The position numbers and the translations under genes were made by a program. The notes beneath the pieces were generated by a model, which did not search any database, was not told where the DNA came from, and was given only the letters and a program-made list of their open reading frames with translations. From an uncultured Clostridia bacterium (GTDB lineage: Bacteria; Bacillota; Clostridia; TANB77; CAG-508), in the NCBI GenBank assembly GCA_947628845.1, contig CANRBK010000001.1, positions 1 through 56,046 of the forward strand: a stretch of DNA of 56,046 nt. The letters are read 5' to 3'. Below, one piece after another: positions 10,467 to 47,352 of the stretch. Positions within the stretch are counted from its first letter, which is position 1; every line of letters starts with the position of its first letter.

Positions 10467-10500
10467 AAGGTTATATTAAGAAATGAAGGAGGTGTATAAA

Positions 10501-15929: not shown

Positions 15930-16703
15930 ATGGAAAAGAATGTAAAAACAAAGATTCTTATTGTAATAGCAGCTATAGTAATGATTATTACAGCAACTAA
16001 TACATTAGTAATGGCAGCAGAAGGAAATGATAAAGGATATTCAGTAAACATCACAGCAAGTAGTGATTCTAAATTAAAAGCGGGAGATGTAGTAACAGTA
16101 AAATTGAATTTACAAAGTGTTAATGCTGGAGGAATGGGTATTAACTCATTTGAAGCTACGATTAAATATGATACTAATGTTTTTGAAGAATTAACACAAT
16201 CAGATTTCCAAGGAAGTAATCCATGGGCAGTAATGTGGACACCACAAACAAATTATTTATCAGTATATGAACTTGGTGCAGATATAAAAGATCCACAAAC
16301 TATGGTAACAATAAATTTTAAAGTTAAATCTTCAATTGATATGGATTCTACAATAATCGGATTTGAATCTTGTAAAGCTTCAAATGGAGGAATTAATGAT
16401 GGAGGAACAGGTGATATAGATGTTAATAATATTTCTATAACAATAGACAAAGAAGCAGAGCCAGTTCCAAGTGAAACACAACCAGAAAATACTGCAGCAC
16501 CTAGCACTACTACACCAACTAATACAGCAAAAACACCTACAACAACTTCAAAAAATGTTGTAAAAGACAATACAGTTACAAAAACAGCAACTTTACCAAA
16601 AACAGGAATTGCACAATATAGTGTAGTAGCAATCGTAGTAATAGCAATAATAGCAATATTTAGTTATGTACTATATAAAAAAACATCAAAAGATGTAAAA
16701 TAG
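15930..16703 (+). CDS. Sortase-anchored cohesin protein (anchoring-scaffoldin-like)
   Basis: AAAGGAG RBS and a signal peptide ending VMAAEG. The cohesin at 16038-16451 reads YSVNITASSDSKLKAGDVVTVKLNLQSV...ATIKYDTNVFEEL. A Pro/Thr linker follows. LPKTG is at 16593-16607, then the hydrophobic helix IAQYSVVAIVVIAIIAIFSYVLY and a KKTSKDVK tail. Confidence 0.85.
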   Translation: MEKNVKTKILIVIAAIVMIITATNTLVMAAEGNDKGYSVNITASSDSKLKAGDVVTVKLNLQSVNAGGMGINSFEATIKYDTNVFEELTQSDFQGSNPWAVMWTPQTNYLSVYELGADIKDPQTMVTINFKVKSSIDMDSTIIGFESCKASNGGINDGGTGDIDVNNISITIDKEAEPVPSETQPENTAAPSTTTPTNTAKTPTTTSKNVVKDNTVTKTATLPKTGIAQYSVVAIVVIAIIAIFSYVLYKKTSKDVK

Positions 16704-19987: not shown

Positions 19988-20048
19988 AATTATGTATTTT
20001 TACGATTATAATTATATATTGCAAAAATTTTAAAAGGTGGATGAAAAT

Positions 20049-32578: not shown

Positions 32579-32630
32579 AGTTAATTGCAAACCTTCCTAC
32601 AAAGTAAGTAAAAGTTTGTTTTTTAAAATT

Positions 32631-32682
32631 TGGTTGCGGGGGGTAGACTCGAACTACCGACCTTTGGGTTATGAGCCCGACC
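32631..32682 (-). pseudogene. 3' half of a disrupted initiator tRNA-fMet gene (element-chromosome junction)
   Basis: The reverse complement reads GGTCGGGCTCATAA-CCCAA-AGGTC-GGTAG-TTCGAGT-CTACC-CCCCGCA-A-CCA. That gives the anticodon loop (CAU), variable loop, T arm, acceptor 3' strand and CCA, but no D arm or 5' acceptor strand. Confidence 0.8.
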
Positions 32683-32780
32683 ATTTCCCAGTATTTTTAT
32701 ATTTTAAAAATATTATATATTCTTACTCTTGCAACCATTTCGGAAGTATTTAATACTTCGATTTTTTATATAAATTTATC

Positions 32781-32802
32781 AATGTCCCTTTAATGTCCCT
32801 TA
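32781..32802 (+). repeat. Tandem arm-type repeat (A/T)TGTCCCTT(T/A)A x2 near the integrase end
   Basis: aatgtcccttt-aatgtccctta. The 19-mer tgtccctttaatgtccctt (32783-32801) recurs identically at 42434-42452. Confidence 0.6.
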
Positions 32803-32811
32803 AAATGTATT

Positions 32812-34071
32812 TTAAGTACAGACATTACATTTCATTCCCTTTAAAATTTCAGGTACTATTTGAATATTATTTATAGGCTCTAGCTTTTCGATTTCAGCTT
32901 TATTTGTATCTTCGTCATATTCAACATAGTAATCCATTGTTGTACTGGCTAAGGTATGACCTAAATATTGTTTTATCTGATTTACAGGTATGTTTACATC
33001 TATACATCTTGTTGCAAATAGATGTCTTAATTGATATACACTTAAATGTTTAAAATTATGTCTTTTCAAAATCTTATCAAGTGTGTCCCATAAATAATCA
33101 CTACTTAAAGCATGTCCTAGACTATTCATAAAAATATACTCGTCATCTAGTTGTTTTTTATTTGTATATCCCTTTTGTTGCATAACATATAGCATATATG
33201 TATGCATTAAATTGTTTAACCATTTTTGCAATGGTATATTTCTATAACTAGATAGTGTTTTTAAGTCTTTTTCTTCAAATGTGGACTTAACTTTTTCAAA
33301 GTTATCATCATAATAGGTTATTTTCCCATAATTATCTCTTACTTTTACATTAGCATCTTCATAGCTGTAATGTTTCCATTTCATACCACCACTTTCTCCT
33401 GGTCTAACACCTGTATTCATTATAAAGATGTAGCATAATCCATTCGTTTCAGAAAGTAATATTTCTATCAACTGCTGTTGTTCTGTTGGTGATATTGTAG
33501 GTTTCTTTTTCTGCCTTTGAACTTTTGGTGTACGAATCGTTGGAATAGGGTTAAATTTTATTATTTTATCAATTTCTGCATCTGCAAATGCCATATTTAA
33601 AATACTTTTTATTTCCTTTATTGTTTTAGGAGAATATTTTTTTATGCCTTTATTTTCGTTGCCAGTTGTTAAGTCAGAGAAATATTCTTGAAGAATTAAC
33701 CTATCTAAAGATTGCATAGGGTAGTTACCTAAATAGGGAATAATGTTTGTTTTTATTTTTTCAATGTACCCTTGTAGAGTTCTAGGCTTAACAAACGACT
33801 TTTTATGAATACGAATCCATTTCTTTAACCATTCTTCTAAAGTTATTTTGTCTTTTTCTACATATTCATTATCGTTTGCTTCTTGTTTTGCTTTTATCAT
33901 TTCTTGTACTAGAATTCTCTTATCTTTATTAAATAAAGATATTTGCTTTGATTTTCCATTTACTTTTATTGTTATTCTACCTTCATATCCACCATTTTTT
34001 GGTCTAATAGAGCCCATTCCTCTGGTGTTTCTTTTTTTCTTTACAGACTGATTTTGTGAAGTTTTTACCAT
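32812..34071 (-). CDS. int: Tyrosine site-specific integrase
   Basis: GGAGG lies 7 nt before the ATG at 34071 (MVKTSQNQS...), preferred over the caller's 34116. The N-terminal arm-binding-type segment is RGMGSIRPKNGGYEGRITIKVNGK. The C-terminal catalytic signature is VYQLRHLFATR...YLGHTLASTTMDYY (R..H-x-x-R..Y). Confidence 0.9.
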   Translation of the reverse strand: MVKTSQNQSVKKKRNTRGMGSIRPKNGGYEGRITIKVNGKSKQISLFNKDKRILVQEMIKAKQEANDNEYVEKDKITLEEWLKKWIRIHKKSFVKPRTLQGYIEKIKTNIIPYLGNYPMQSLDRLILQEYFSDLTTGNENKGIKKYSPKTIKEIKSILNMAFADAEIDKIIKFNPIPTIRTPKVQRQKKKPTISPTEQQQLIEILLSETNGLCYIFIMNTGVRPGESGGMKWKHYSYEDANVKVRDNYGKITYYDDNFEKVKSTFEEKDLKTLSSYRNIPLQKWLNNLMHTYMLYVMQQKGYTNKKQLDDEYIFMNSLGHALSSDYLWDTLDKILKRHNFKHLSVYQLRHLFATRCIDVNIPVNQIKQYLGHTLASTTMDYYVEYDEDTNKAEIEKLEPINNIQIVPEILKGMKCNVCT

Positions 34072-34164
34072 AACTTTGCCTCCATTCAATACAGAGAACA
34101 TTAAAAGTAAAAGCACAATATTTAATGTTCTCTATTATAGGGCAAATTTCATTGGAAAGCAATG

Positions 34165-34362
34165 TTAAACAAAAAATCTTCCAGAATTTTGATCAAACCA
34201 GTCTTGTAATTTTTTCTTGTTAATAACAATTCTTCTTTTAAACTTAATGCAAGGAAAATCTGGGTACTTTATTAATTCACTCATTAAGTTTTTGCTAATA
34301 CCTAACATATTAGCTGCTTCACTAACATTTAAGCCTATTTTTTCATTAAAATTTTCATTCAT
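34165..34362 (-). CDS. Excisionase / MerR-type helix-turn-helix DNA-binding protein
   Basis: 65 aa, LNVSEAANMLGISKNLMSELIKYPDFPCIKFKRRIVINKKKLQDWF, immediately upstream of int on the same strand. Confidence 0.6.
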   Translation of the reverse strand: MNENFNEKIGLNVSEAANMLGISKNLMSELIKYPDFPCIKFKRRIVINKKKLQDWFDQNSGRFFV

Positions 34363-35665
34363 TTATATCACTTCCATATATAGATTAGGCACATTTATCA
34401 TAAACTGCCTTATGGAAGGGCAAACTTTTCGGGTCAACACATACTTTTATTAATTTTTTTAGCAAATCACTTCCTTTCTCATATATAATTTTATAACCTT
34501 TTTTTATTAATTTCAATAAGCACGGCTAAAAAAATTTTTTCGTTGATATTTAGGGTTTTTTAAGCACTTTTAGTATGGAATTTTAAATTCCTTAGGCATT
34601 TTTTTATTATAACTTATGGTATTTGTTTTAATTAAAAATAAAAACTATAAAGGCTAATTTTAAAGCATAAGACTTAAACAATTTATTTAAAATTGTAAGT
34701 GCTTTTTCAAAGAAAAATAGTAGTATCCTCCAGTTAGAAACAACAAATATAACTTGTCTTACAAAAATTTTAGCCAAATTTAATAATTATCCACATTTTC
34801 TTAACAATGTATTGATAAGAACAACAGAAATCAAAGAAAATAACAAAAAGATTTATCCTATTTAATGAGAATTCTTTAAAAAAGGATATTATGGTGATAA
34901 GTTAAAAGTAATAAATTTTTTACAAGATTTTGGCTGTGCTTAAGTTAAGCCGTTTACAAAAGTTATTTAGAGATAAAAACGATAATTTTAGAAATATTTT
35001 ATATAGTAATATGGTAAGTAAAAAAGGTGATATATTCGTTCATAATACACGAAAAATCAATGATAATACGTTAGTAGCAAGATATATTATGCAAGTATAA
35101 AAAACGACTTATAAGATTTTATCAAGGCTATTAGCCAGTATATATAACTTTTCTTACAAATGAACATTTATTATATCATATTATTGTAGCAACTGAAGAT
35201 AATAAAAAAGGAATTGTAAAATTTATAAATTCCTATCCCTTTTCACTCCTTAAAACTGATAAATTAATTTTGGCATTTCCTAATAGTGGAGAGCTAGAAA
35301 ATATTGACTGTGAAATACCATTTTTATATACTACATATCCTGAACTTGTGGTATTAAATAATGATGGAGATGAGGAAAATAAGGAAATTTAACTTTTTTT
35401 ATATTTTATACTCTTTTATAGTTTTTGTCTAGAATTCTAAAATTACTTTTCCTATTTATATAGTTTGCAACTATATAAATAAAATATTTACTAAATATTT
35501 TAAGTTGATTTTTATTATTATTTGATGAATAAAAATAGTATGATACTTGAGAGTATGATATAATCAATAAAGATAAATATATCATCTTACTTATTTTTTA
35601 TAAGAAAATTTTTTTGAAACTTTTTTTTAATTAATGGGTATGTATTATTGAGAGTAGGGTAAAAT

Positions 35666-37282
35666 ATGGAAAAAGATTTGGATATGAAATTATATAATGA
35701 ATATTTACAAGGAAAAGAAGAAGCTTTTGAATTATTATACAATAAATATAAAGATAAAATAAAATATTTTATTTTTAATTTAATAAAAGACTATCAGAAA
35801 GCTGAAGATATTACTCAGGAAGTTTTTATATATATATTACAAAATAAAGTAAGGGAAGGCTATAGTTTTAAATATTATATATATCTAATTGCGAAGAGTA
35901 GAGCACTAAATCATATAGATAAAGAAAAAAGAAGGTCAATAATATCAGAAAAATATTTTCTAGAAAAAACAGAGGAAACGGAAAAAGATATAAGTGATAT
36001 TATAACACAAAAAGAAACAGAGAAAGAACTTATCAAAGCTATAGATATGTTAGATGAAAAATATAGAAATGCAATATATTTAGTAAAAATAGAAGAATTT
36101 TCTTATAAAGAAACAGCAGATATACTGGGAGAATCAGTTCAAAATATAAAAAATCTTATCCATAGGGGCAAAAAAGAATTACGTAAAAACTTAATAAAGA
36201 AAGGATTCGATGAAATGAATAAAGTCTCAAAAATGCTAATCATTATATTGTGTATAAGTATTGTATTATCAGGAGTTGTTTATGCTACAATGAAAATTTA
36301 TAAAAATATAAAAAGCAAAGCAGAAATGACTCCTACATATACAAGTAAAATTTCTACAATAGATACTAACAAGGTTTGGATAGGAACGTTTAATTTAGTT
36401 TGGAATGACTTTATGAATGATGTAATTGGAGGGAAAATTGAATTTGAGAATGAATATTCTGAATTAGCAAATGAATTAAATAAACAGAGTTTCACAGTAG
36501 AAAATTTATCAGAAGAAGATTATTTTAAAATGCATGGAGTTGCAACTTTCGATTTAAAAAATATAATTGAAAAAGGTATAAGCCAAAAGTTTAATGAAGA
36601 AAGCAAAATATTAGAAGAAGTAGAATGGGGAAATCCAGATGGTTATGTCTTGTATGCAATGTTAAGAAAAAAATTTAATTATTTAGAAAATTTTCCAACG
36701 TTACAAGCAAAGACATTTGGTAATACAGAAGAGAAAATTAAATACTTTGGAATAGAACCTAATACTAATCAAGATGCAAGTAAAAATATAGAAATTCTAT
36801 TTTATAATTCAAAAGATGATTTTTCAATAAAGTTAAAAACAATAGAGGGAGAAGAAATTTATTTATATCGAACATCTGGAGAAAATAAATCATTTGAGGA
36901 AAATTATCATGAAATGTTGGAAAAACAATTACAATATTCAGGAAATAAAAAGTGGCAAAAAAATGATATCTTAAGAATACCTTTTATAAAAATAAACGAA
37001 GAAATAAATTATGATGAATTATGTGGCAAATATATAAAAGGTACAGATTGGTATATTAGACAAGCTTTACAAACAATAGAATTTGAATTGAATAATTATG
37101 GTGGATGTGTTAAAAGTGAGGCATTAATAGAAGCGTTAAAAAATAGCATAAGCAAAGTAGATAGAGAATTTATATTTGATGATACATTTTTATTATATTT
37201 AAAAGAAGAACATAAAGAAAAACCATATTTTGCATTAAAAGTTGATAATACAGATATATTGATAACATATAATGAAAATTAA
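35666..37282 (+). CDS. ECF-type sigma-70 factor fused through one TM helix to a ~330-aa serpin-like extracytoplasmic domain
   Basis: Sigma region 2: YKDKIKYFIFNLIKDYQKAEDITQEVFIYIL. Region 4: YRNAIYLVKIEEFSYKETADILGESVQNIKNLIHRGKKELRKNL. The TM helix is MLIIILCISIVLSGVVYA (~36221-36283). The C-terminal domain shows serpin-like motif order: GYVLYAMLRKKFNYLENF, IEILFYNSKDDFSIKL, ILRIPFIKINEEINYDEL, ALQTIEFELNNYGG, FIFDDTFLLYLKE. Confidence 0.6.
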   Translation: MEKDLDMKLYNEYLQGKEEAFELLYNKYKDKIKYFIFNLIKDYQKAEDITQEVFIYILQNKVREGYSFKYYIYLIAKSRALNHIDKEKRRSIISEKYFLEKTEETEKDISDIITQKETEKELIKAIDMLDEKYRNAIYLVKIEEFSYKETADILGESVQNIKNLIHRGKKELRKNLIKKGFDEMNKVSKMLIIILCISIVLSGVVYATMKIYKNIKSKAEMTPTYTSKISTIDTNKVWIGTFNLVWNDFMNDVIGGKIEFENEYSELANELNKQSFTVENLSEEDYFKMHGVATFDLKNIIEKGISQKFNEESKILEEVEWGNPDGYVLYAMLRKKFNYLENFPTLQAKTFGNTEEKIKYFGIEPNTNQDASKNIEILFYNSKDDFSIKLKTIEGEEIYLYRTSGENKSFEENYHEMLEKQLQYSGNKKWQKNDILRIPFIKINEEINYDELCGKYIKGTDWYIRQALQTIEFELNNYGGCVKSEALIEALKNSISKVDREFIFDDTFLLYLKEEHKEKPYFALKVDNTDILITYNEN

Positions 37283-37496
37283 GAAAAATTTTAGAGTAAC
37301 TATTAAGAATTTATCATATATTTTGTTAGATACTTAATAGTTACATATAGATTCTTCGGAAAATTACTTGACAAAGTAAGACTATCATAAAAGTTGTGTA
37401 AATCGGATTTCTGTTCGACTCTGTCAAGTAAAGTGTGTAATTTTTTTTTGATTTTAAAATTTTTACAAAATCGATGACTAAAAATAGCCATCGGTT

Positions 37497-38201
37497 TTAT
37501 TTTTTTAATGTTTCTATACAATTTGTAATAATATCTTTTGCAGTTGGGCAAGATTTGTTCTCTTTTCCATATGTTTTGCTAATATAAGTTCTATCTTCAG
37601 TATATCTCCACATAGATTTTATTGCTCTATTAATATTCCATTTGACTTTTTGATTGGTAGTATTAAATTGCGTTGCTACTAGTGAGTATAGGCTATTTTC
37701 CATTTTTAATAATAATTTTTCATTTTTATTTGCCTCTAGAATAGCTTTTATTAGATATTGAGTACCAGAAGCACTCATATTAAATTTCAGATCTTTAAAA
37801 ATTGTTATAATATTTTTTCTATATACATCTTCTTCTAAATCTATCGCAAGTCTGTTTACATAGTTAGTTAACAGAGATAAATCTTTTGTTTTTGAGAATA
37901 TGAAATCTATATTTTCTTTATTTGATATTTTATAGATATAGTCTGAATATCCAGAAACGATAATAATTCTAGAATTTATATCTTCTTTTTGAATTTTAGT
38001 AATAACTTCTATTCCATCCATCTTAGGCATATTTAAATCTAATATTACAATATCAGGTTTTAATTCTAAAATTGAGTTGTAAGTACTTAGTCCATCAGTA
38101 GTTATATCTACTATTTTTAAATTTTCATTTCCTCTAATTATACTATTAAATAAATACTTCAAAAAATGAGTATTGTCATCTGCAATTAATATATTAACCA
38201 T
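37497..38201 (-). CDS. Spo0A-like response regulator (receiver domain plus Spo0A_C-type DNA-binding domain)
   Basis: GAGGAG lies 6 nt before the ATG at 38201 (MVNILIADDN...), preferred over 38222. Receiver residues are DD, ILDLNMPKMDG and a conserved K. The C-terminus GTQYLIKAIL...LYSLVATQFNTTNQKVKWNINRAIKSMWRY...PTAKDIITNCIETL parallels Spo0A ([28 protein letters not shown]...PTNSEFI). Confidence 0.65.
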   Translation of the reverse strand: MVNILIADDNTHFLKYLFNSIIRGNENLKIVDITTDGLSTYNSILELKPDIVILDLNMPKMDGIEVITKIQKEDINSRIIIVSGYSDYIYKISNKENIDFIFSKTKDLSLLTNYVNRLAIDLEEDVYRKNIITIFKDLKFNMSASGTQYLIKAILEANKNEKLLLKMENSLYSLVATQFNTTNQKVKWNINRAIKSMWRYTEDRTYISKTYGKENKSCPTAKDIITNCIETLKK

Positions 38202-38489
38202 AATATTCTCCTCAAAAATCATATAATATCTTTTAATGTAAAATACCGATTAAAATCAAAAAGGTTTCAAAATTGTCTATTTTTGTCTATTTTTTTAAAA
38301 ATAATATTTAAAAGATGTATTATATACAATATATATCTTGATTTTCAAAATCAATTTAGTTAAATTTAAAAACTTTCTTAAGAAGGGAGGGGATGAATTA
38401 TTATTTGTCTAGAGAAAATTGCAGAAATAGATTAAATGTAATTTTTTTGATTTTGTAATATAAAAAGTTATATTGAAAGGGGAATAATT

Positions 38490-39392
38490 ATGAATATGAA
38501 AAAATTTTTCATTATTTTTGCACTTATAGTATTGTTACTTTTATTAACTTTTGGTTGTGTATTAGCATCTAAGGATACTAAGTCTTTTGAATATCAACAA
38601 TATGAAAATATAGTTGATACATATAGCATTTCTACAAGGGCATCACAACAAGATGTAATACAAAAAGGAAATGAAATACTTGATATATTAAATGCAAATT
38701 CGTTGGCTAGAACTGCAAATCCATCAAATGATGACTACACTGTTGAAAAAATTATAAAAGATAATAATTACAATACTCAAAGCTATTTATATACAAACAA
38801 TAAGAATTATGAGATTCAATTAGATACTACAGATTTAAGTTTAACAGGAATTAATTCATTAGATATAAATTATAATCTTTCTTCAGAAAATATAGACAAA
38901 GAATACGTGCAAGAATATATCAATAGTATTTACACAAATTTAAACTTAGATAGTAGCTACAAACTAGTATACTTAGAGAAATTTGATGGTGCATTATGGG
39001 AAGCAGACTATCAAAAAGAATATGATGGAATTTATAATCCATATGAAGCAGTTAAAATAATATTTTCACCTATTGAAAAAAAGATTGCTAGTCTAAAAGT
39101 TTTTAAAATGAAATATACTGCTAATCAACAAAATAATACTACTAAAGAGATGGCTAAATCAACTTTTAACACTAAATTTGCAAATACAAAAGCAAATAGT
39201 ATATCAGAACTTAAGACTGAAATTGTATTTATAAGACCCAATAATTTAGTGGATTCTAATAGAGATGATGGTTCAAAAGCATTATTTAATAATAACATAA
39301 AAAAAGCATGGAAAGTTACAAATAATGAAGGTCTTTCTTTATATATTGATATAGAATCTGGTGAAGTTATAGGAGGTGAGCAGTTAAGATGA
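38490..39392 (+). CDS. Secreted (possibly lipid-anchored) PepSY-like domain protein
   Basis: Signal peptide MKKFFIIFALIVLLLLLTFGC. The C-terminal segment KKAWKVTNNEGLSLYIDIESGEVIGGEQL resembles the PepSY signature (W-x-V...Y-(I/V)-D-x-x-(T/S)-G-E-(V/I)). Confidence 0.5.
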   Translation: MNMKKFFIIFALIVLLLLLTFGCVLASKDTKSFEYQQYENIVDTYSISTRASQQDVIQKGNEILDILNANSLARTANPSNDDYTVEKIIKDNNYNTQSYLYTNNKNYEIQLDTTDLSLTGINSLDINYNLSSENIDKEYVQEYINSIYTNLNLDSSYKLVYLEKFDGALWEADYQKEYDGIYNPYEAVKIIFSPIEKKIASLKVFKMKYTANQQNNTTKEMAKSTFNTKFANTKANSISELKTEIVFIRPNNLVDSNRDDGSKALFNNNIKKAWKVTNNEGLSLYIDIESGEVIGGEQLR

Positions 39393-40021
39393 GAAAACAT
39401 ATAAAAATGTTATTATTATTTTCTATATTATTATCTTTAATATCATTTTCTGGTAATAAAACTTATGCTGCTGAAGGAGCAAAGGCATTTGGAAACAGTG
39501 CTATTAGTACATATATAGACGATATGGATTTTGCCTATGGAGGGTTTAGAAAATTAGGATATAGTGCTTCTACTAGTACAGCATATTATAATAATGTAAT
39601 GAATTGGATTAATACAAGTAGTAACAACTATGGTTTCTATATTACTACACATGGTCCAAGCAATGCATCTGCTGCAGCTGGCACAAGTTTCTTTGTTACT
39701 CAAGAAGGAAATTATATTTATCCTAGTAATATAACTGGTAATTGGCATCTAGTATATATTGATGCTTGCAATAGTAAAAGATCTGATTCATTTGCGAATG
39801 CTTTTAGAATATCAGGGTATTCAAATAGAGCTTATCTAGGATGGGCAACAGAAGTTGGTATGTCATCTGCAAACCAATTTAATGATTATTTTTGGAATAC
39901 ATATGTAACCACTCGTTCAATTCAAGCTGCTGCCGTTGCAGCTGCTGGACAAGTTCCTGGCTCGGGAACTACTCCTATTAGATTTGCAGGAGATACTGGT
40001 TGGTATGGATATTCATCATAA
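39389..40021 (+). CDS. Small secreted clan-CD (gingipain C25 / caspase-fold-like) cysteine peptidase candidate
   Basis: The start ATG overlaps the upstream TGA (ATGA at 39389-39392). The signal peptide ends TYAAEG. The His-Gly and Ala-Cys dyad context is FYITTHGPS...(39 aa)...LVYIDACNSKRSDSFANAF, compared with gingipain NYTGHGS...FDVACVNGDF...FAEAL. Confidence 0.4.
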   Translation: MRKHIKMLLLFSILLSLISFSGNKTYAAEGAKAFGNSAISTYIDDMDFAYGGFRKLGYSASTSTAYYNNVMNWINTSSNNYGFYITTHGPSNASAAAGTSFFVTQEGNYIYPSNITGNWHLVYIDACNSKRSDSFANAFRISGYSNRAYLGWATEVGMSSANQFNDYFWNTYVTTRSIQAAAVAAAGQVPGSGTTPIRFAGDTGWYGYSS

Positions 40022-40042
40022 GAATAAATACCTATAAAACAA

Positions 40043-40068
40043 AGGGGCTGTAAAAAAGTCCCTTTTTA
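40043..40068 (+). terminator. Rho-independent terminator
   Basis: aggggct-gtaaaaa-agtccct hairpin (one G-U pair) followed by a T5 run. Confidence 0.55.
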
Positions 40069-40343
40069 TTAATATCTTATCTATTTTAAAATATAATTTT
40101 TATTACTATTTTTTTAAAAATTATAACATTAGTCTAAATAAAAAACAGCTTATTTTTCAAAAGAATAGACCATTATATTTAAGTTTCTTTATTTAATGTA
40201 TTATAACTAATATTAAAATCATCTTTAAAAAAATCTTTATAATTAGCCCCATACTTAGTATCTAAATTATATACAAGTGGAATTAACTCACGAAAATACA
40301 ATTTATAATATAATCCAAATTACATAAATTATTATTTTTTCAA

Positions 40344-41267
40344 CTAGCAATAATATTTTCTTTCTTTATCAATATATTTTTCCAAATCTATCACACAATA
40401 ATTGGCACCAGGTAGTTCTTTTCGTAATCTTGTTTCCAACTCTGTATTACAAATAATACATGCATTTTTAGTAGAATTCTCCCTTATAAAATATTTGAAT
40501 CTTGTAATTTTTTCAGTATCTATAAAATAAAACATATTAATAAATTTATCTTTATTATTTGTATATTCACAAAAACTATATTCAGATAAATAAGCTCCTT
40601 TATAGCATTTATCTATAACTTCTTTCCATCTTATACTATGTAAATATTTTAATTTTTCTCTATTAATAGCATTATCTTCAATTATTAATATTTGATTCAA
40701 CCCAAAAGCAAAATCATTCAAATTTATTCTATTTATATCATCTACTAAAATAATAATATTTTTGTATTTCATTTCTTTTTGTATATCATAAGCTACAGAT
40801 TCAATATATTTACTATCATACTCTTTAGGAATTTGATAAGCTAGGTATTCAAATCCGTTTATATTAAATATTCCTATAAATCTTCTACCTGTTGTTGTAA
40901 ATACTCTTTTATCTTTTATTGCAAATGATGGTATAAAATCGACTGTTTTACAATTATGATAAAAAGCAGCTATATTACTTAACCTTAATAATCTTTCTCT
41001 ATATTCTTGATTTTTATTTAATTTATTATATTCAAAGTTTAATAATTTTACATATTGGATTCCTGATCCACCCAATACTAACATCCACCTAATTTTTCTT
41101 AAGAAATCTTTATCTATTAAATTTTTAATTCTATTTCTATAATACCTACTACTATTGAAAAAATACTTTGCATCACTTACATTTAAATACTGATATTTTG
41201 CAATAAATTTTATCAAAGAAATCTCATCTTCATTTGTCGGAAAATAACTCACACTTATCACCTCCAA
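40344..41267 (-). CDS. Mobile-element protein, replication-relaxation-family-like (winged-helix N-terminus)
   Basis: The N-terminus EDEISLIKFIAKYQYLNVSDAKYFF...RNRIKNLIDKDFLRKI has the pattern of Replic_Relax-type proteins on Firmicutes plasmids and ICEs. No catalytic motif was recognised. Confidence 0.4.
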   Translation of the reverse strand: MEVISVSYFPTNEDEISLIKFIAKYQYLNVSDAKYFFNSSRYYRNRIKNLIDKDFLRKIRWMLVLGGSGIQYVKLLNFEYNKLNKNQEYRERLLRLSNIAAFYHNCKTVDFIPSFAIKDKRVFTTTGRRFIGIFNINGFEYLAYQIPKEYDSKYIESVAYDIQKEMKYKNIIILVDDINRINLNDFAFGLNQILIIEDNAINREKLKYLHSIRWKEVIDKCYKGAYLSEYSFCEYTNNKDKFINMFYFIDTEKITRFKYFIRENSTKNACIICNTELETRLRKELPGANYCVIDLEKYIDKERKYYC

Positions 41268-41480
41268 TACTAACTAATAATTTACCAATAAATTGTCCGT
41301 TGGTAAGATATTCGATAGCTACGCTATCAAATACTTACCTCCACTTCAAAAACTATATCATTAAAATCATAAAACACTTGAAATATAAGCATTTTCTTGT
41401 AATTTGAAATATGCCAAATTTCTTTAATAAAAAAAGTTAATTTTGCTACATTTTTTGTAACTATAAAATTCACATTTTTT

Positions 41481-42170
41481 TCATTTTGTACTACCATTTA
41501 TGATAGATTTTTTATAATAATTTAATAAATTATCTGGATTATTACTCAATGCTAAAAAATATAAATTTACTAAATTTTCTCTATTTACATTTTGAAGTAT
41601 AAATTGAAAATTGTTATTATATAAATCATACAAGACATATATGATATCTTTTATCATATTAATTTTATCTTCTTTCATATATTGAAGCATATAAGAATCA
41701 TAATTAAAATCTAATCTTTCAATTATTGCTAAAAATTCCTTTGGAATTTCGTTACTATTATTTATAATTAAATAAAATAAATCATCTATATTAGATTTTA
41801 TATTATTATCTTTAACAATTTTGTTAATACACTCTTTACTTTTTGGTATATAGGGGTATTGATTTTTTTGATAATAGGGTAGATCTACAATATAAATATT
41901 TCTTGATACTATTTCTTTGTTTTCATTTCTTATAACTTCTGTTTTTATATATCCAAGTTCTTGTAAATGTGAAATCCATCTACTAACTGAGACGGCTGTT
42001 ACATTATATAAATCTGCAAAGTATTTATTTTGAGCATAACAATAACCATTTTTATTGGCTAATGCTGTAATTTCTCCATATAATAACTTTTCGGCATATT
42101 TTAAATTAGTGTCATACCTAACTGTAGCAGGTATTATTGCATAATAATTTGGTTGTTCTTTTTTATTCAT
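41481..42170 (-). CDS. Helix-turn-helix (HTH_36-type) replication-initiator/replisome-organiser-like protein
   Basis: NYYAIIPATVRYDTNLKYAEKLLYGEITALANKNGYCYAQNKYFADLYNVTAVSVSRWISHLQELGYI. This N-terminal pattern is typical of phage and plasmid Rep-type HTH proteins. Confidence 0.55.
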   Translation of the reverse strand: MNKKEQPNYYAIIPATVRYDTNLKYAEKLLYGEITALANKNGYCYAQNKYFADLYNVTAVSVSRWISHLQELGYIKTEVIRNENKEIVSRNIYIVDLPYYQKNQYPYIPKSKECINKIVKDNNIKSNIDDLFYLIINNSNEIPKEFLAIIERLDFNYDSYMLQYMKEDKINMIKDIIYVLYDLYNNNFQFILQNVNRENLVNLYFLALSNNPDNLLNYYKKSIINGSTK

Positions 42171-42242
42171 ATATTATGCGCCTCCATATCTTTAAATTTT
42201 GCTGAAGGGCAAATTTATAAAGTATGAAAGTATTTATAAACG

Positions 42243-42278
42243 AAAAAAAGAGACTTTACTTTTTATAGTAAAATCTCT
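42243..42278 (-). terminator. Rho-independent terminator downstream of the element-borne tRNA-fMet
   Basis: On the minus strand, the agagattttact-ataaaa-agtaaagtctct hairpin is followed by a T7 run. Confidence 0.55.
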
Positions 42279-42330
42279 GTATTAAAAATTACACTTAAAG
42301 GGACATCCCTTTAGGTAAAAACTTCCGAAT

Positions 42331-42406
42331 TGGTTGCGGGAGAAGGACTCGAACCTTCGACCTTCGGGTTATGAGCCCGACGAGCTGCCAACTGCTCCAT
42401 CCCGCG
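42331..42406 (-). tRNA. tRNA-fMet (CAU), initiator type, complete, carried inside the element
   Basis: The reverse complement folds as CGCGGGA-TG-GAGC-AGTTGGCA-GCTC-G-TCGGG-CTCATAA-CCCGA-AGGTC-GAAGG-TTCGAGT-CCTTC-TCCCGCA-A-CCA (76 nt). The C1:A72 mismatch and three consecutive G:C pairs closing the anticodon stem are the bacterial initiator hallmarks. Confidence 0.9.
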
Positions 42407-42433
42407 ATGTTTCATTAAATATTGTGCTTTTTT

Positions 42434-42452
42434 TGTCCCTTTAATGTCCCTT
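42434..42452 (+). repeat. Second copy of the tandem arm-type repeat
   Basis: tgtccctttaatgtccctt is identical to 32783-32801. An inverted single copy, ttaaagggacat, lies at 42295-42306. Confidence 0.6.
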
Positions 42453-42595
42453 TATAATTTGATTTTTAATAATTTTTATTAAGTTTTAATAAGCTTAAAA
42501 GTTTTATTAAAGGTTTGAGCAAAATATATAATTTTCAACGTTTTTTTGTGTTATCAACGGTTTTGGACTTTAGCAATTCTTCGGTGCTACTCTGT

Positions 42596-42633
42596 TTATG
42601 AGCCCAACGAGCTGCCAACTGCTCCACCCCGCG
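42596..42633 (-). pseudogene. 5' half of the disrupted chromosomal tRNA-fMet gene
   Basis: The reverse complement reads CGCGGGG-TG-GAGC-AGTTGGCA-GCTC-G-TTGGG-CTCATAA and then diverges (ACAGAGTAGC...). Confidence 0.8.
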
Positions 42634-42732
42634 ATATTTGGACAATTTTTATTATATAACAAGATATACATATTTGTCAATAGTTTTTGAAAAAAATAAT
42701 GAAGAATATAAGAAAAAATATTTATAAATAAA

Positions 42733-42761
42733 TTGTCAAAAAAAAGTTGTTATGGTAAAAT
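42733..42761 (+). promoter_or_regulatory. Candidate promoter of the AAA+/VWA cassette
   Basis: TTGTCA (42733-42738), a 17-nt spacer, then the TG-extended -10 tggTAAAAT (42753-42761). Confidence 0.45.
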
Positions 42762-42803
42762 ATTTTTAGAGATAAGTCTTGAAGATTAAGGAGGGAAAAA
42801 AGT

Positions 42804-45038
42804 ATGAGTAATCTTACTTTTTTAACACAAGAGCAGTGTTTTGGAAGTGATAAATTAGATATATTACGAAAAAGAGGAACAGAGGCAGCAATAACAGATT
42901 TTTCTATTCTTTTAGGAGGATATGTTTCAGACTATCACATAGATGGTGATGATTCTTTAGAGAGTAGAACAGGTTATTATTGGACTAAATCAGATGACTG
43001 GGAAAACGACGCGCGCGTGGTTAACGCCGATGGTCGTAGATCTTGGAACGGTGTTCGTCTACGCAATGGTGGGGCGCGCCCAGCTTTACCGTTCTCATCA
43101 ATCTCTAGCATCCCCACGAACGGAGTGAGTGGGAAAAGAGCAAGAGATGGGATTCTTGAAGTAGAATATGGATACTATCCACAAAAAGCAGTATCAAAAG
43201 ATATGCAATTAAAATTAGAACAAGCATTTAAAAGTGGAAGATTATCAAGAACTGGAAAAGGATATACAACAGACTCAAAAAAAGATAATGATACTGATGA
43301 AAAATTTGAGCCAAAAAGACACTGGGAATATCAATATAACGGAAAAAGATATGTGAGAGTTGAAGCTAATTCAGTTTTTGGTGGAGGTGAATTTCAACTT
43401 TCAAATGGAGAAAAATATAGAGATGGAGATAATGTATGGGTAGAAGTATCTCCAGTAAAATGGTTAGTTGATGAAAAAGCAAGAATTATGCTAACAGAGA
43501 AATTGATTTTTGCAGGAGTTCAATTTAATCATACAAGAGATTATCATACAAGAGATTTTGACAAAACAGATATAAAAACATTTATGGATAAATATTTATC
43601 CAAAGAGTTAGAACAATCAAGAGGAACAATAAATTTAGGGGAACAACAAGAAGAAACAGAGGAAATAGAGGATACTGGAACTAGAAAATCAAGATTGCAA
43701 AAATTAAATCCAGATGATACGAAGCCTTCTTCAAGAACAAATATGACAGATACAGAAATAATACATAATTGGATAGAATCAGGAGAATCTGTATTGCTTC
43801 GAGGACCATCTGGAATAGGAAAAACAGAAAGAATAAAATCATTATACCCAGATTTAATATATATAAAATTAACAAATAATATGTTTCCAGAAAAAGTAGT
43901 GGGATCTGTTAATTTACAAACGGGGCAAAGCATACCACCAGACTTTGCTAAAACTGTAATTATGCAAGAAGCAACAGAAAAAGAAAGAAAATTAATTGAA
44001 GAAAATATACAAAGTATATACGATATAGCAGATATAGTTTATGAAAGATCAAAAGAAAGTAGAAAAAAAGTAGTAATATTGCTAGATGAGCTTTTAAATG
44101 TAAAACCAGCAGTTCAAAGTTTAGTATATACTTTAGTATTGAATAGAATGGTAGAGATAGGAAAAGGACTTAAACTACCAGATAATGTTGTGGTTGTTGC
44201 AACTGGAAATCAAAAAAAGTATTCAAGTGTAGCAGAGGATTTGGCAGAGCCATTAGAAAAAAGGTTTGACCATATACTAGATATGGAGCCAAAAGTTGGA
44301 GAATGGATAACAGAATATGCAATACCACATAAAATACATCCAGCAATAATAGGATATATGTTATCTAAATATAATAATTCTGGTAAAAGTGAGGATATAC
44401 AAGATATAGGTTATTTTTATGAGGAGCCAGAAGTAGGAGAAGAACATTTGGATAAAAATGGATGTAGAGGAAGGACAAATGATCCACGTGGATGGACTTC
44501 AATTTCAAACACACTTTACAATTTTGAAAGAAATTTAGAAGCAGGTAAATATAAAGGAAGAAATGTGGAAGATATAATTCAGAGGTCAATAGAGTCTAAA
44601 CTTCGTATGGAATGGGCAAGTGAATTTTTTGATTTTTATAATCTTCCAACATTAACTCCAGAAGAAGTAGTAAAAGGAATGGGTAAAGGATATACACAAG
44701 CAGATTTACCAAGAGATATAAGCGAGAGATTTGCATATATGACAGCATTGATAACAGCAGATAAAAAACAAGTAGAGGCCTGTAGAGAATTTATAAGAAA
44801 ACATTGTGATTCAGAATATCTTTCAATTTATGACATATATTGGGCAGGAAATGATGAAAGAAAAATGGAAAGAATATCAGAGTTACAAGAAATGACATTA
44901 TCTTTACATATAGCAGATGAGTCAAAACAATATGCTGAAGAAGGAGCTAAAGCTTATACTAAGATAGGTCAAATGTATAGTAGATATTTAGCAAGAAAAA
45001 ACACTAAAAAAAGAGGTGAAAATAATGAAAGAAGTTGA
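42804..45038 (+). CDS. Cytoplasmic fusion of a DUF6273-like (W-x-x-S...G-x-RPAL) N-terminal domain and a MoxR/AAA_5-type ATPase
   Basis: GGAGGG RBS and no signal peptide. The N-terminus contains EAAITDFSILLGGYV...YYWTKSDDWENDARVVNADG...GARPALPF and VWVEVSPVKWLVDEKARIMLTEKLIF. Walker A is GPSGIGKT (43803-43826). Walker B is VVILLDEL. Sensor-1 is VVVVATGN. LEKRFDHI follows. Confidence 0.75.
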   Translation: MSNLTFLTQEQCFGSDKLDILRKRGTEAAITDFSILLGGYVSDYHIDGDDSLESRTGYYWTKSDDWENDARVVNADGRRSWNGVRLRNGGARPALPFSSISSIPTNGVSGKRARDGILEVEYGYYPQKAVSKDMQLKLEQAFKSGRLSRTGKGYTTDSKKDNDTDEKFEPKRHWEYQYNGKRYVRVEANSVFGGGEFQLSNGEKYRDGDNVWVEVSPVKWLVDEKARIMLTEKLIFAGVQFNHTRDYHTRDFDKTDIKTFMDKYLSKELEQSRGTINLGEQQEETEEIEDTGTRKSRLQKLNPDDTKPSSRTNMTDTEIIHNWIESGESVLLRGPSGIGKTERIKSLYPDLIYIKLTNNMFPEKVVGSVNLQTGQSIPPDFAKTVIMQEATEKERKLIEENIQSIYDIADIVYERSKESRKKVVILLDELLNVKPAVQSLVYTLVLNRMVEIGKGLKLPDNVVVVATGNQKKYSSVAEDLAEPLEKRFDHILDMEPKVGEWITEYAIPHKIHPAIIGYMLSKYNNSGKSEDIQDIGYFYEEPEVGEEHLDKNGCRGRTNDPRGWTSISNTLYNFERNLEAGKYKGRNVEDIIQRSIESKLRMEWASEFFDFYNLPTLTPEEVVKGMGKGYTQADLPRDISERFAYMTALITADKKQVEACREFIRKHCDSEYLSIYDIYWAGNDERKMERISELQEMTLSLHIADESKQYAEEGAKAYTKIGQMYSRYLARKNTKKRGENNERS

Positions 45039-45441
45039 ATATAGTGAAGCAGCAACACAAGTATTAGATATATTAAATTATACAAGACAAGAAGATGTAA
45101 AAAAAATTCCACAAAGTTTTATAAAGTTTTTAAATAATATTTCAAATAAACAGGATACCCCAAAATTTAATCATGAGTATACAATAAGTGCATTAAACCT
45201 AACAAAGAGAACCAAAGAACTTTTAGGTTTTATGTATATTACTTGGTGGTGTAATGAAAGTGAAAGAAAAAAATATAAAAGTATAATACACTCTAATAGT
45301 ATAAAGACAGAAAAAATTACAGATTATAATGCAAATGATATACTTAATAAAAAAATAGAAAAGAAACCTAATATAACTAATAATACATTAGAAACCTCTA
45401 TCATTGAAGACAAGAAAGAAAATTTATTTAAAAAATTATAA
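45025..45441 (+). CDS. Hypothetical 138-aa protein (overlaps the upstream stop by 14 nt)
   Basis: AAGAGG lies 8 nt before the ATG at 45025, preferred over the caller's GTG at 45016. No motif was recognised beyond IPQSFIKFLNN...LLGFMYITWWCNESE. Confidence 0.5.
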   Translation: MKEVEYSEAATQVLDILNYTRQEDVKKIPQSFIKFLNNISNKQDTPKFNHEYTISALNLTKRTKELLGFMYITWWCNESERKKYKSIIHSNSIKTEKITDYNANDILNKKIEKKPNITNNTLETSIIEDKKENLFKKL

Positions 45442-45479
45442 AATTTCTTTGCAAATAAAAATGAAAGGGGTAAGATATA

Positions 45480-45842
45480 ATGATAAACAAAGAATTAATT
45501 GAGTTGCAAAAAGGTTGCAATGCTACTTGTGTTGTAATTCAAAATGAGGATATAAAAGAACTAGAATCAAATATTTTAGTGAACTCAACTTACAATATAA
45601 ATGATTTAATTAAAATTTTTAAAGAAAATATAAGTAGTAAAAAATATGATTATTTTGTAATAGAAGAAATTGATAAAATAAATTCAAATGAGCAAGATAA
45701 ATACTACCAAATTATCAAAGATAGAGAATTTTGTGGATATAGATTACCAGAAGATATAATCATTGTTCTTACAGTAAAAAGTAAAGAAACTTTAAAGAAT
45801 ATATCACAAAAACTTTATAATCTTTGCGTTGTTGCTTTTTAA
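45480..45842 (+). CDS. Hypothetical 120-aa protein resembling a P-loop-less fragment of an AAA core
   Basis: AAGGGG RBS. YDYFVIEEIDKINSNEQDKYYQIIKDREF...LPEDIIIVLTVKS has Walker-B/sensor-1-like spacing, but there is no GxxGxGK. Confidence 0.45.
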   Translation: MINKELIELQKGCNATCVVIQNEDIKELESNILVNSTYNINDLIKIFKENISSKKYDYFVIEEIDKINSNEQDKYYQIIKDREFCGYRLPEDIIIVLTVKSKETLKNISQKLYNLCVVAF

Positions 45843-45867
45843 GGTTTGAAGAAAGGAAGTGCCGCGA

Positions 45868-47241
45868 ATGGATGCTAGTATGATTTATGATATAAAAATA
45901 AAAATGCTAACGAAGTATCCTAGATTTGGAAGTGAAATAGCAAAAGCAAATATTGAATTCAAAAATGATTTACCTTACCATACTGTAGCAACTGATGGAC
46001 AAAATATCTATATTGATCCAAATTATTTTGCAAGTTTAAGTGAAAGTGATAGATTATTTACATTAGCACACGAAATAATGCACATGAAATTTTTACACGC
46101 TTTTAGATTAAAAGATAAAGAGGGTAAAATAAGGGATTTAGAATTATGGAATATAGCAACAGATGCTATTATAAATGCAAATCTAGAAAGAGATGGATTT
46201 ACAATTAAAAAAGGAGATGTAAATATACCAGAAGCATTAAATTATTCAGCAGAAGAATTTTATCAAATTTTATTACAAGAAAAAGAAAAGAAAAAACAAG
46301 AGCAACAACAAAGCCAAAATGGTGATGAACAAAATCAAGAAGAAAATGGGCAGACATCTAGACAAGGTGATGACCATAGCTTATGGGAACAAGCATTTAA
46401 AAATAGAGAACAAAATAAAAAGCAAGGTGAAAAAAAACAAAAAACTCAAAGAGATTCAAAAGAAGAACAGACGCCAGTAGAAGAACAAGAAATGGGACTT
46501 GATGAAAAAGATGAATTTACAGAAAATAGAAAAGAAAAAAGGGAGAAATTTAAAGCAAGACGTAAAAAAACAGAGCAAGACATAAGGGAAAAACCAGAGC
46601 AAGACATAAGGGAAAAAACTGGTGAAGCAATAAAATTAGATAACATAGGAGAAAGCAAAGAAGAAATTGATTGGAAAGTTCTAATACGAAGGGAAGTAGA
46701 AAAGACCGAAACAATATGGAGTCAAAGAAGATCAATTGCAGAAAATAATTATGCTTATAGATTAGAAGAAAATGACATTGAAGATGATGCTGAAACAGAA
46801 ATTATGATTGATGTTTCTGGATCTGTAGAATTAGATTTAGTTAAGGCTTTTTTAAGACAAATAAAACCATTATTAAAGCAATCTAAATTAAGAGTTGGAT
46901 GCTTTGATGTAAATTTTTTTGACTTTATAAATATTAAAAATATGAAGGATATAGATAATTTTACTATACCAGAAGGAGCAGGAGGATATACAGATTTAGA
47001 TTTACCAGTTAGATGTTTTACAAAAAAAAGAGAAATAAATAAAATAGTATTTACTGATGGCTACCCAAGTTTTGATAAGATGCCAAAAGAAGATTTGAAA
47101 AAAGAAAATATTATTTGGCTTGTATATGGAAATAAGGATTTCAAGCCCTGTTGTGGTAAAGTTATAAATATTACAGAAAGACAACTAGAACAGTTACATT
47201 TAATTAATACAGACTTTTCAATGGAAGATATAAGTAGATAA
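45868..47241 (+). CDS. DUF2201-type putative metallopeptidase domain plus VWA-like domain protein (MoxR partner)
   Basis: AAGGAAG lies 8 nt before the ATG at 45868, preferred over the GTG at 45859. HEIMH sits in LFTLAHEIMHMKFLH. WNIATDAIINANL follows, then a K/E/Q-rich linker. The C-terminal segment EIMIDVSGSV...VFTDGY is the VWA-like (MIDAS-type D-x-S-G-S) pattern. Confidence 0.7.
   Translation: MDASMIYDIKIKMLTKYPRFGSEIAKANIEFKNDLPYHTVATDGQNIYIDPNYFASLSESDRLFTLAHEIMHMKFLHAFRLKDKEGKIRDLELWNIATDAIINANLERDGFTIKKGDVNIPEALNYSAEEFYQILLQEKEKKKQEQQQSQNGDEQNQEENGQTSRQGDDHSLWEQAFKNREQNKKQGEKKQKTQRDSKEEQTPVEEQEMGLDEKDEFTENRKEKREKFKARRKKTEQDIREKPEQDIREKTGEAIKLDNIGESKEEIDWKVLIRREVEKTETIWSQRRSIAENNYAYRLEENDIEDDAETEIMIDVSGSVELDLVKAFLRQIKPLLKQSKLRVGCFDVNFFDFINIKNMKDIDNFTIPEGAGGYTDLDLPVRCFTKKREINKIVFTDGYPSFDKMPKEDLKKENIIWLVYGNKDFKPCCGKVINITERQLEQLHLINTDFSMEDISR
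46571..46618 (+). repeat. 24-bp tandem duplication (23/24 identical) in the low-complexity linker
   Basis: cagagcaagacataagggaaaaac / cagagcaagacataagggaaaaaa encodes EQDIREKP EQDIREKT. Confidence 0.9.
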
Positions 47242-47266
47242 AGTACCTAAATGGTGCTTTATTTTT
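47240..47266 (+). terminator. Hairpin terminator
   Basis: aaagtacc-taaat-ggtgcttt (one G-U pair) followed by atttttaa. Confidence 0.45.
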
Positions 47267-47352
47267 AATGATATTAAAAAATTATATTCAAAAAATTCAC
47301 AGATAGTGATATAATTGTGGAAAATATTATATAAATAGAAAGGAAATAAAAA

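Follow-up and report, generated by a model that had tools for sequence, protein, structure and literature searches.

A probable diversity-generating retroelement variable region, without an adjacent retroelement, in a MoxR-type ATPase gene of an uncultured Clostridia bacterium

Why should a gene of an AT-rich bacterium carry, inside its coding sequence, 128 bp that are poor in adenine, rich in G and C and written in codons foreign to the genome? The question is raised by a stretch of 56,046 nucleotides from an uncultured Clostridia bacterium (assembly GCA_947628845.1, contig CANRBK010000001.1, positions 1 to 56,046), referred to here as the window. The patch lies at 43006-43133, within the plus-strand open reading frame (ORF) 42804-45038. 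A preliminary description of the locus had offered three explanations: a variable region (VR) of a diversity-generating retroelement (DGR) whose template repeat (TR) and reverse transcriptase (RT) are not nearby, a gene-conversion tract from a high-GC homologue, or a structured RNA or translational-pause element. The first of these is right in substance, as the hypervariable codons of the patch match the AAY/AAA-type TR codons of relatives. A DGR copies the RNA of its TR into cDNA, inserting bases at random opposite adenines, and this cDNA then takes the place of the VR. We are highly confident that the patch consists of a DGR VR (43008-43083) and a putative 3' acceptor-specific flank, situated in the DUF6273-like head of an apparently cytoplasmic MoxR-type ATPase; the cassette is absent from the window, and the allele is probably now static.

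The adenine-poor patch and its template in related genomes

The base composition of the patch is 18.8% A, 27.3% C, 31.2% G and 22.7% T (58.6% GC), whereas the remainder of the target gene contains 43.6% A and ~31% GC. When the window was scanned in sliding 125-bp segments (mean GC 27.2%, standard deviation (sd) 5.3%) the highest value, 58.4%, was obtained at 43007-43131, which places the patch ~5.9 sd out and above the tRNA genes. The abrupt change in composition noted in the preliminary description is therefore the GC maximum of the window, and the sequence quoted for it is present, but the span had been given as 43016-43140 and every coordinate was 10 nt too high. The foreign arginine codons that had been reported are likewise present: CGC occurs three times, CGT twice and AGA once in the patch, while CGC is not used for arginine in 19 other ORFs (0/318) or in the remainder of the target gene (0/42; 0/360 combined). 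The frame is unbroken, as had been stated, and the patch encodes aa 69-111 of the 744-aa ORF. Both of the GC-rich 10-bp palindromes that had been described exist, ACGCGCGCGT at 43009-43018 and GGGCGCGCCC at 43072-43081, again at positions 10 nt lower than first given; the palindromy of GGGCGCGCCC is clade-specific, and most relatives carry GGGGCTCGCCC.

A search for homologous proteins returned 1369, of which the top 120, 81-99% identical to the query, were used for an alignment of 121 sequences. In what follows L-numbers denote related loci or contigs and P-numbers homologous proteins (P0001 is from L127 and P0002 from L128). The preliminary description had pointed to such an alignment as a check, and variability is indeed concentrated in the VR codons, with 78 distinct VR strings among the 121 proteins. 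The hypervariable core, delimited by entropy in this alignment and by the TR codons of relatives, comprises codons 74-88 (43023-43067) and contains 12 mutable codons (74-76, 78-83, 85, 86 and 88) set among the scaffold codons G77 (GGT), V84 (GTT) and R87 (CGC). Each mutable position shows 8-15 residue types, most of them 11-15 and position 79 only 8, and entropy at these positions is mostly 2.4-3.3 bits, falling to 1.5 at position 79. The residues between and around them hardly vary: V73, G77, R87, G90, R92 and P93 are invariant in all 121 sequences, and V84 (120/121), G89 (118/121) and A91 (120/121) are nearly so. Averaged over longer stretches, entropy reaches 1.11 bits in aa 76-100 but only 0.45-0.56 in aa 1-75 and 0.26 in aa 101-125. 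The C-terminal tail departs from this confinement, with 0.83 bits at aa 701-725 and 1.09 at aa 726-750. The residue types found at the variable sites (N, D, S, Y, G, A, R, C, H and others) are those expected from adenine mutagenesis of AAY codons.

To look for a template we scanned contigs, one genome per GTDB species, with the pattern GCGCGCGTGGTT-N(36-54)-GGTGGGGC built from both constant arms of the VR. It matched a coherent set of gut metagenome-assembled genomes of 26-30% GC, labelled uncultured Clostridia, Clostridium, Bacilli or Tenericutes. The same scan of viral contigs gave one GC-rich match (L007), which was taken as chance. In eleven loci (L009, L014, L059, L061, L064, L076, L079, L094, L119, L124 and L125) the pattern is present twice, usually with ~1.65 kb between the copies, and of the paired copies one lies in the orthologous gene while the other is non-coding and is the TR. 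The non-coding copy reads GACGCGCGCGTGGTT AAC GAT AAT GGT AAT AGA AAT TAC AAC AAT GTT AAC AAA CGC AAT GGTGGGGCTCGCCCAG and continues with ATTCAC. Cassettes in L061, L064, L076, L128 and others have the order bAvd-like ORF, 76-nt TR, RT, target, and the cassette stands directly upstream of the target in every related locus that has one. In L061, L064 and L076 the ORF upstream of the TR is 192-201 aa long and matches the bAvd family PF22296 over nearly the full profile (E 2e-4 to 1.4e-3), and the RT, of 340-376 aa, matches RVT_1 with E 3e-16 to 4e-19. The RT of L128 contains the DGR-diagnostic motif LGNQSSQ at 186 and YMDD at 218.

Comparison of TR and VR within the same locus gave a strongly adenine-specific pattern. 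Over ten such pairs 99 of 253 TR adenines were changed as against 5 of 507 other bases (Fisher p=2e-47), the changed adenines having become G in 52 cases, C in 24 and T in 23. All five changes of other bases are at the TR boundary, within the first one or two bases compared. This specificity bears directly on the idea that a high-GC homologue supplied the patch by gene conversion or horizontal transfer, in favour of which the abrupt jump in GC and the codons foreign to the genome might be cited. Variation in the patch is adenine-specific relative to the TR, and the same GC-rich arms are found in all the AT-rich orthologues and in their non-coding TRs. Many high-GC genomes also matched the pattern scan, but with gap lengths other than the 45 nt of VR and TR and with no match paired; these were taken as chance and not individually examined. 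An origin of this kind is therefore extremely improbable.

The nearest relative that bears a cassette is L128, in which the target protein (P0002) is 94% identical and the DNA 94.6% identical over 3.7 kb. Its cassette, directly upstream of the target, consists of Avd at 7925-8506, the TR at about 8580-8655 and the RT at 8871-9896. The TR of L128 reads AAC GCG CGC GTG GTT AAC GAA AAT GGT AAT AGA AAT TGA AAC AAT GTT AAT AAA CGC AAT GGT GGG GCG CGC CCA G, and in the VR of the window 15 of its 27 adenines but none of its 49 other bases are changed (Fisher p=6e-9). The VR was delimited by this comparison as the 76-bp TR-homologous stretch at 43008-43083; the preliminary description had regarded the whole ~125-bp patch as a VR, which holds for these 76 bp and not for the other 50 bp, a VR-specific flank. 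Between the VR of the window and that of L128 itself 17 of 76 positions differ, and there have therefore been separate homing events in the two lineages since they diverged. Opposite the mutable sites the TR codons are AAC, GAA, AAT, AGA, TGA and AAA. In the clade of L128 (8583-8655) and L076 (in the latter the TR is on the minus strand at about 7193-7272) the TR has an in-frame TGA at codon 81, and some of its other mutable codons are AAA, AGA or GAA. Codon 81 is TGG, TGT or TGC in every VR observed, and if the adenine of the TGA were kept on homing the target would be truncated at residue 81.

The VR is bounded by two constant arms. The 5' arm (43008-43022; GAC GCG CGC GTG GTT, aa 69-73) is A-poor and GC-rich, uses the same codons in 20/20 orthologues, has a sequence identical in the TRs and probably provides the upstream homology for integration of the cDNA. 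The 3' boundary, GGTGGGGCGCGCCCAG at 43068-43083, is rich in G and C and forms the end of TR/VR identity: TR and VR agree through CGCCCAG and then split at once, the TR continuing with ATTCAC and the VR with CTTTAC. By analogy with the G/C-rich start of the initiation of mutagenic homing (IMH) element, GGTGGGGCGCGCCCAG may mark the end of A-to-N mutagenesis. Among 20 orthologues synonymous diversity falls to 0 in codons 69-73 and to 0.06 in codons 89-94, compared to 0.20-0.26 in flanking codons. Since adenines in the TR are liable to mutation, residues that are to stay constant are encoded without adenine, and the patch is depleted in A and enriched in GC because these residues must use adenine-free codons (GCG, CGC, GTG, GTT, GGT, GGG), whereas the host genome outside it, at 27% GC, prefers AGA and GGA.

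Beyond the VR the stretch 43084-43133, encoding aa 95-111, has no counterpart in the TR and was recognised by its synonymous diversity and its GC content at third codon positions (GC3). Synonymous diversity in codons 95-111 is 0.09, as compared with 0.20-0.26 in the flanks, and GC3 is 0.57, as compared with 0.10-0.16 outside the patch. Where a VR is N-terminal or internal the IMH has to overlap coding sequence (Wu et al. 2018, PMC5758913). Because of this requirement, and of the synonymous constraint and GC3 found here, we regard 43084-43133 as a putative IMH-like homing signal that would tell the acceptor VR from the donor TR.

The third explanation, a structured RNA or translational-pause element in the mRNA, has on its side that the segment is GC-rich and contains several short inverted repeats. 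Folding gave z=+0.68 as RNA and z=0.06 as DNA, and a scan of the window against Rfam at gathering scores returned only tRNAs. The hairpin that the preliminary description had singled out does exist as a CGTAGA/TCTACG inverted repeat, with arms at 43035-43040 and 43058-43063, but these precede the G/C run instead of following it and are made of hypervariable codons that differ in every orthologue, so it was rejected as a conserved structure. It is hardly credible, then, that the patch is an element of this type.

Two further features of the related cassettes were observed. The region just 3' of the TR (2574-2640 in L061, with equivalents elsewhere) is strongly conserved across clades as ATTCACTTTTGATAAATCCTATAAAAGTGG...AATCAGAGAAATAT and contains a CACTTTT/AAAAGTG inverted repeat; it may be an RNA element that primes cDNA synthesis. 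Two tandem full-length target paralogues lie downstream of a single cassette in L080 (VRs at 1920 and 5005), L107 (VRs at 3521 and 6609 on the reverse complement), L061, L124 and L028. The two VRs are identical to each other in L080 and in L107, the RT of the latter being truncated, which suggests duplication or conversion without later diversification.

The missing cassette and the history of the locus

The near-repeat, RT and Avd which the preliminary description proposed to look for are absent from the window and present in related genomes, upstream of the orthologous gene. When the RT and Avd proteins of L061 and L076 were compared with the window by tblastn there was no match in the 56 kb. 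A blastn search at word size 7 found no TR-like copy of the patch within the window, and Pfam scans found no RT in its other sizeable ORFs. The target gene also had no blastn match in plasmid and phage collections.

The point at which the cassette is missing can be located closely. In blastn comparisons with L128, L001, L046 and L076 homology to the window begins at 42710-42726, and position 42713 corresponds to the stop codon of the L128 RT. About 80 bp before the point occupied by the cassette in sister strains there is a 40-nt copy of the 5' half of a tRNA-Met (42596-42635), giving a junction at 42596-42713, and the intact tRNA-Met is at 42331-42406 on the minus strand. The region upstream of ~42713 is a tRNA-Met integration hotspot. 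With the cassette absent from just this region, the VR of the window is probably an allele that was orphaned recently and is now static, its binding specificity fixed, and the local evidence favours loss of the cassette over its relocation.

The hotspot is occupied by an integrative element of ~9.7 kb (32630-42635), whose far end is a copy of the tRNA 3' half at 32630-32681. It encodes a tyrosine integrase (32812-34116, minus strand), and its cargo includes a sigma-70 protein, a Spo0A_C-type response regulator and HTH_36 proteins. Elsewhere the window holds two giant ORFs (216-10466 and 20037-32540, of 3416 and 4167 aa) and small dockerin- and cohesin-domain proteins (10483-11499 and 15930-16703). 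The GC peaks other than the patch are ordinary, being tRNAs, a Pro/Ser/Thr linker repeat and an Ala/Gly-rich tail; the peak at 21006-21130, for example, is a Pro/Ser/Thr/Glu linker repeat within the second giant ORF.

An independent contig, L127, is 99.84% identical to the window over 21 kb and has the same cassette-less layout and an identical VR. Only fragments of an RT are left in L046 and L107. In the P0017 lineage (L001-L006, on contigs as long as 1.56 Mb) transposase fragments (rve, HTH_Tnp_1 and UPF0236) occupy the site of the cassette, at 7681-9730 of each locus. An identical 747-aa protein of this lineage occurs in 316 index blocks, and in close variants of it the VR changes are limited to R/H at residue 82 and two changes at V72. 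As read from the sequences of these loci, cassette decay is a recurrent event in the target family. A separate observation concerns the ATPase domain: all ten amino acid differences between the protein of the window and the 99%-identical P0001 of L127 fall in residues 354-420 (43863-44063), and this 67-residue cluster looks like a short recombination tract.

The VR might instead still be diversified in trans, by a cassette in the same genome >13 kb downstream or >43 kb upstream of it. In favour of this, the two constant arms are intact, as is the 3' flank, and all are the same as in cassette-bearing relatives, the lack of any non-adenine difference from the L128 TR implies little or no decay since the last homing, and remote targets are documented for 45 of 372 DGRs (PMC5758913). 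Set against this, related cassettes are always immediately upstream of the target, the upstream region of the window has been replaced exactly at the cassette boundary, the VR is identical in the independent sample L127 and decay of the cassette is frequent in the family (L046, L107, L001-L006). On balance we consider diversification in trans unlikely.

Several points weigh against an orphaned DGR VR as we have described it. The 56-kb window is all of this genome that was covered, and a trans-acting cassette elsewhere is possible. No TR, RT or Avd is present in positions 1-56046, and any activity on this copy would be hypothetical. The identical VR of L127 is weak as a sign of stasis, as the strains are only 0.16% apart. 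The bAvd match of the relatives scores ~20 bits in Pfam, below the gathering score of 40. No GC-rich hairpin was found after the VR, the DNA folding score already given (z=0.06) applying here too; the only inverted pair after the putative IMH is a 6-bp CCGTTC/GAACGG with a 23-nt loop. A GC-rich inverted repeat (cruciform) downstream of the IMH is a feature of only about 34% of DGRs. Finally, when a structural model of the head domain, described below, was compared with the PDB by Foldseek there was no significant match, including to the C-type-lectin structures of Mtd or TvpA, and a demonstrated C-lectin fold is for that reason not claimed.

With these points in mind, the orphaned DGR VR that we prefer would have arisen as follows. 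In relatives the upstream bAvd-like/TR/RT cassette would rewrite the VR from the TR, and the 12 codons templated by AAY, AAA, GAA, AGA or TGA are hypervariable and both G/C-rich arms are kept identical to the TR. The 50 bp past the TR/VR homology would mark the acceptor as an IMH-like signal. Loss of the cassette from the locus in the window would then have left the VR as a locked allele.

The target protein and its partner genes

The layout of the 744-aa target (42804-45038, plus strand) was derived from the ORF, Pfam and AlphaFold2 (AF2). Its head (aa 1-~125) is DUF6273-like (C-type-lectin-like), the middle is rich in beta structure, and aa ~330-490 form a MoxR-like ATPase, which matches AAA_5 (MoxR/dynein-type) with E 4.5e-6 and 27 bits (cutoff 22). 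The protein has no signal peptide. The N-terminal 125 residues of the window protein have no direct Pfam match, and the assignment of the head comes from its wider family and from the BFVD matches given below. The family comprises 667 clusters at 50% identity. Among 96 representatives of this family 6 reach Pfam DUF6273 (best E 7.8e-6). Of 95 members sampled, 87 have the head beginning no later than residue 15, which leaves no room for a signal peptide, and the varied C-terminal fusions in the family include Ank, LRR_5, pentapeptide, DUF4116 and AAA_5 (P0121-P0270).

An AF2 model of aa 1-125, built with a deep family alignment, has a pLDDT of 91.9 and shows the VR as a beta-hairpin with strands at 69-73 and 79-83; a shallow alignment (>72%-identical homologues) gave a pLDDT of about 30 and was not used. 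A Foldseek search of the AF2 model against BFVD found DUF6273 phage proteins at E 0.009-0.03. The best relevant match in the PDB is weak (TMq 0.45) and is to the IgA peptidase of T. ramosa (9qa6), which has a DUF6273 N-terminal domain (PMC12402451). The target is apparently cytoplasmic and may function as an intracellular sensor.

The target is followed on the same strand by partner genes at 45016-47241, identified by Pfam. These are two small ORFs (45016-45441 and 45480-45842) and a protein at 45859-47241 that combines a DUF2201_N metallopeptidase domain (E 3e-23) with a VWA-like DUF2201 domain, the latter scoring 25.4 bits, just under the cutoff of 26.4. The resulting four-gene module (42714-47286) is conserved with L001, L076 and L128. 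No VMAP was found in the module, and PADLOC run on it gave one weak match only, to DolB (E 3e-6), covering part of the ATPase domain.

Relation to known systems and meaning

The mechanism is that of a standard DGR, which is already well established; what is unusual is the target, in which an apparently cytoplasmic DUF6273-like head is joined to a MoxR-type ATPase. The prototype, the mtd/bAvd/TR/Brt system of Bordetella phage BPP-1, shares with the present family adenine-specific TR-to-VR substitutions, a non-coding TR beside an RT with the [LIV]GxxxSQ motif and an Avd-like gene (here in relatives), a G/C-rich element at the 3' limit of mutagenesis and adenine-free scaffold codons. It differs in that the BPP-1 VR is C-terminal, whereas the VR described here lies close to the 5' end of its gene (aa 69-93 of 744). 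The TR here is also short (76 nt) and the order in relatives is avd, TR, RT, target; TR and VR diverge wholly after the G/C run in place of an imperfect IMH/IMH* pair; there is no GC-rich hairpin after the VR; and the window carries the VR only. In a large survey VRs were near-universally C-terminal and most cellular targets were membrane-anchored (bioRxiv 10.1101/2020.04.01.020958).

The N-terminal DUF6273-type C-type-lectin-like head and the gut Firmicutes hosts are shared with tentaclins and other DUF6273 DGR targets of gut phages and prophages (PMC10743442; for Faecalibacterium, PMC11792537). Those proteins have the head followed by Ig/Fn3 domains and are virion or surface proteins, whereas here the head starts at residue 1 without a signal peptide and is fused to a MoxR-like AAA_5 domain, the operon adds a DUF2201 metallopeptidase/VWA protein, and the setting is cellular and apparently cytoplasmic. 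A parallel in function may be the MoxR-vWA 'ternary' conflict systems (Kaur et al. 2020, PMC7159879; Dore et al. 2024, PMC10907252), in which a DGR-diversified ligand-binding domain is coupled to a MoxR-type AAA+ protein and a VWA partner. By this analogy the two likely share a role as intracellular sensors. The ternary systems, found in multicellular cyanobacteria and proteobacteria, have the VR in a C-terminal C-lectin domain of FGE type that is joined to the vWA protein, with MoxR and VMAP separate. In the present family the ATPase itself carries the variable head, the partner protein is DUF2201 instead of VMAP, and the hosts are small-genome AT-rich gut Clostridia. Remote DGR targets, as in Treponema and Legionella (Wu et al. 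2018), similarly have neither RT nor TR within tens of kb of the VR, but their matching TR is elsewhere in the genome, while the comparative evidence here points to deletion of a cassette that was formerly adjacent. The literature searched contained no description of the head-MoxR ATPase architecture, which is not proof of novelty.

These results have implications for how DGR targets are found and for their evolution. Where an AT-rich gene contains an abrupt island poor in adenine and rich in G and C, the island can be recognised as a trace of adenine-directed retro-mutagenesis even if no retroelement is present, and a search for such islands could bring orphan DGR targets to light. The known DGR targets are extended by an apparently cytoplasmic AAA+ ATPase whose variable head is N-terminal, and the synonymous constraint in 43084-43133 suggests that a minimal acceptor signal lies within the coding sequence itself. 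That the mutator has been lost repeatedly, with a fixed allele kept, bears on how long diversification lasts once a useful specificity has been found. Tentatively, and with low confidence, we suggest that the family could be an undescribed DGR-programmed intracellular sensor of unicellular, small-genome gut Clostridia, in which a hypermutated head sits on a MoxR-type motor with a DUF2201 VWA/metallopeptidase partner, possibly as an anti-phage or conflict module. The mutator would be repeatedly discarded and the specificity thereby locked, and the TGA of the TR, by giving null alleles in some homing events, might provide on/off switching.

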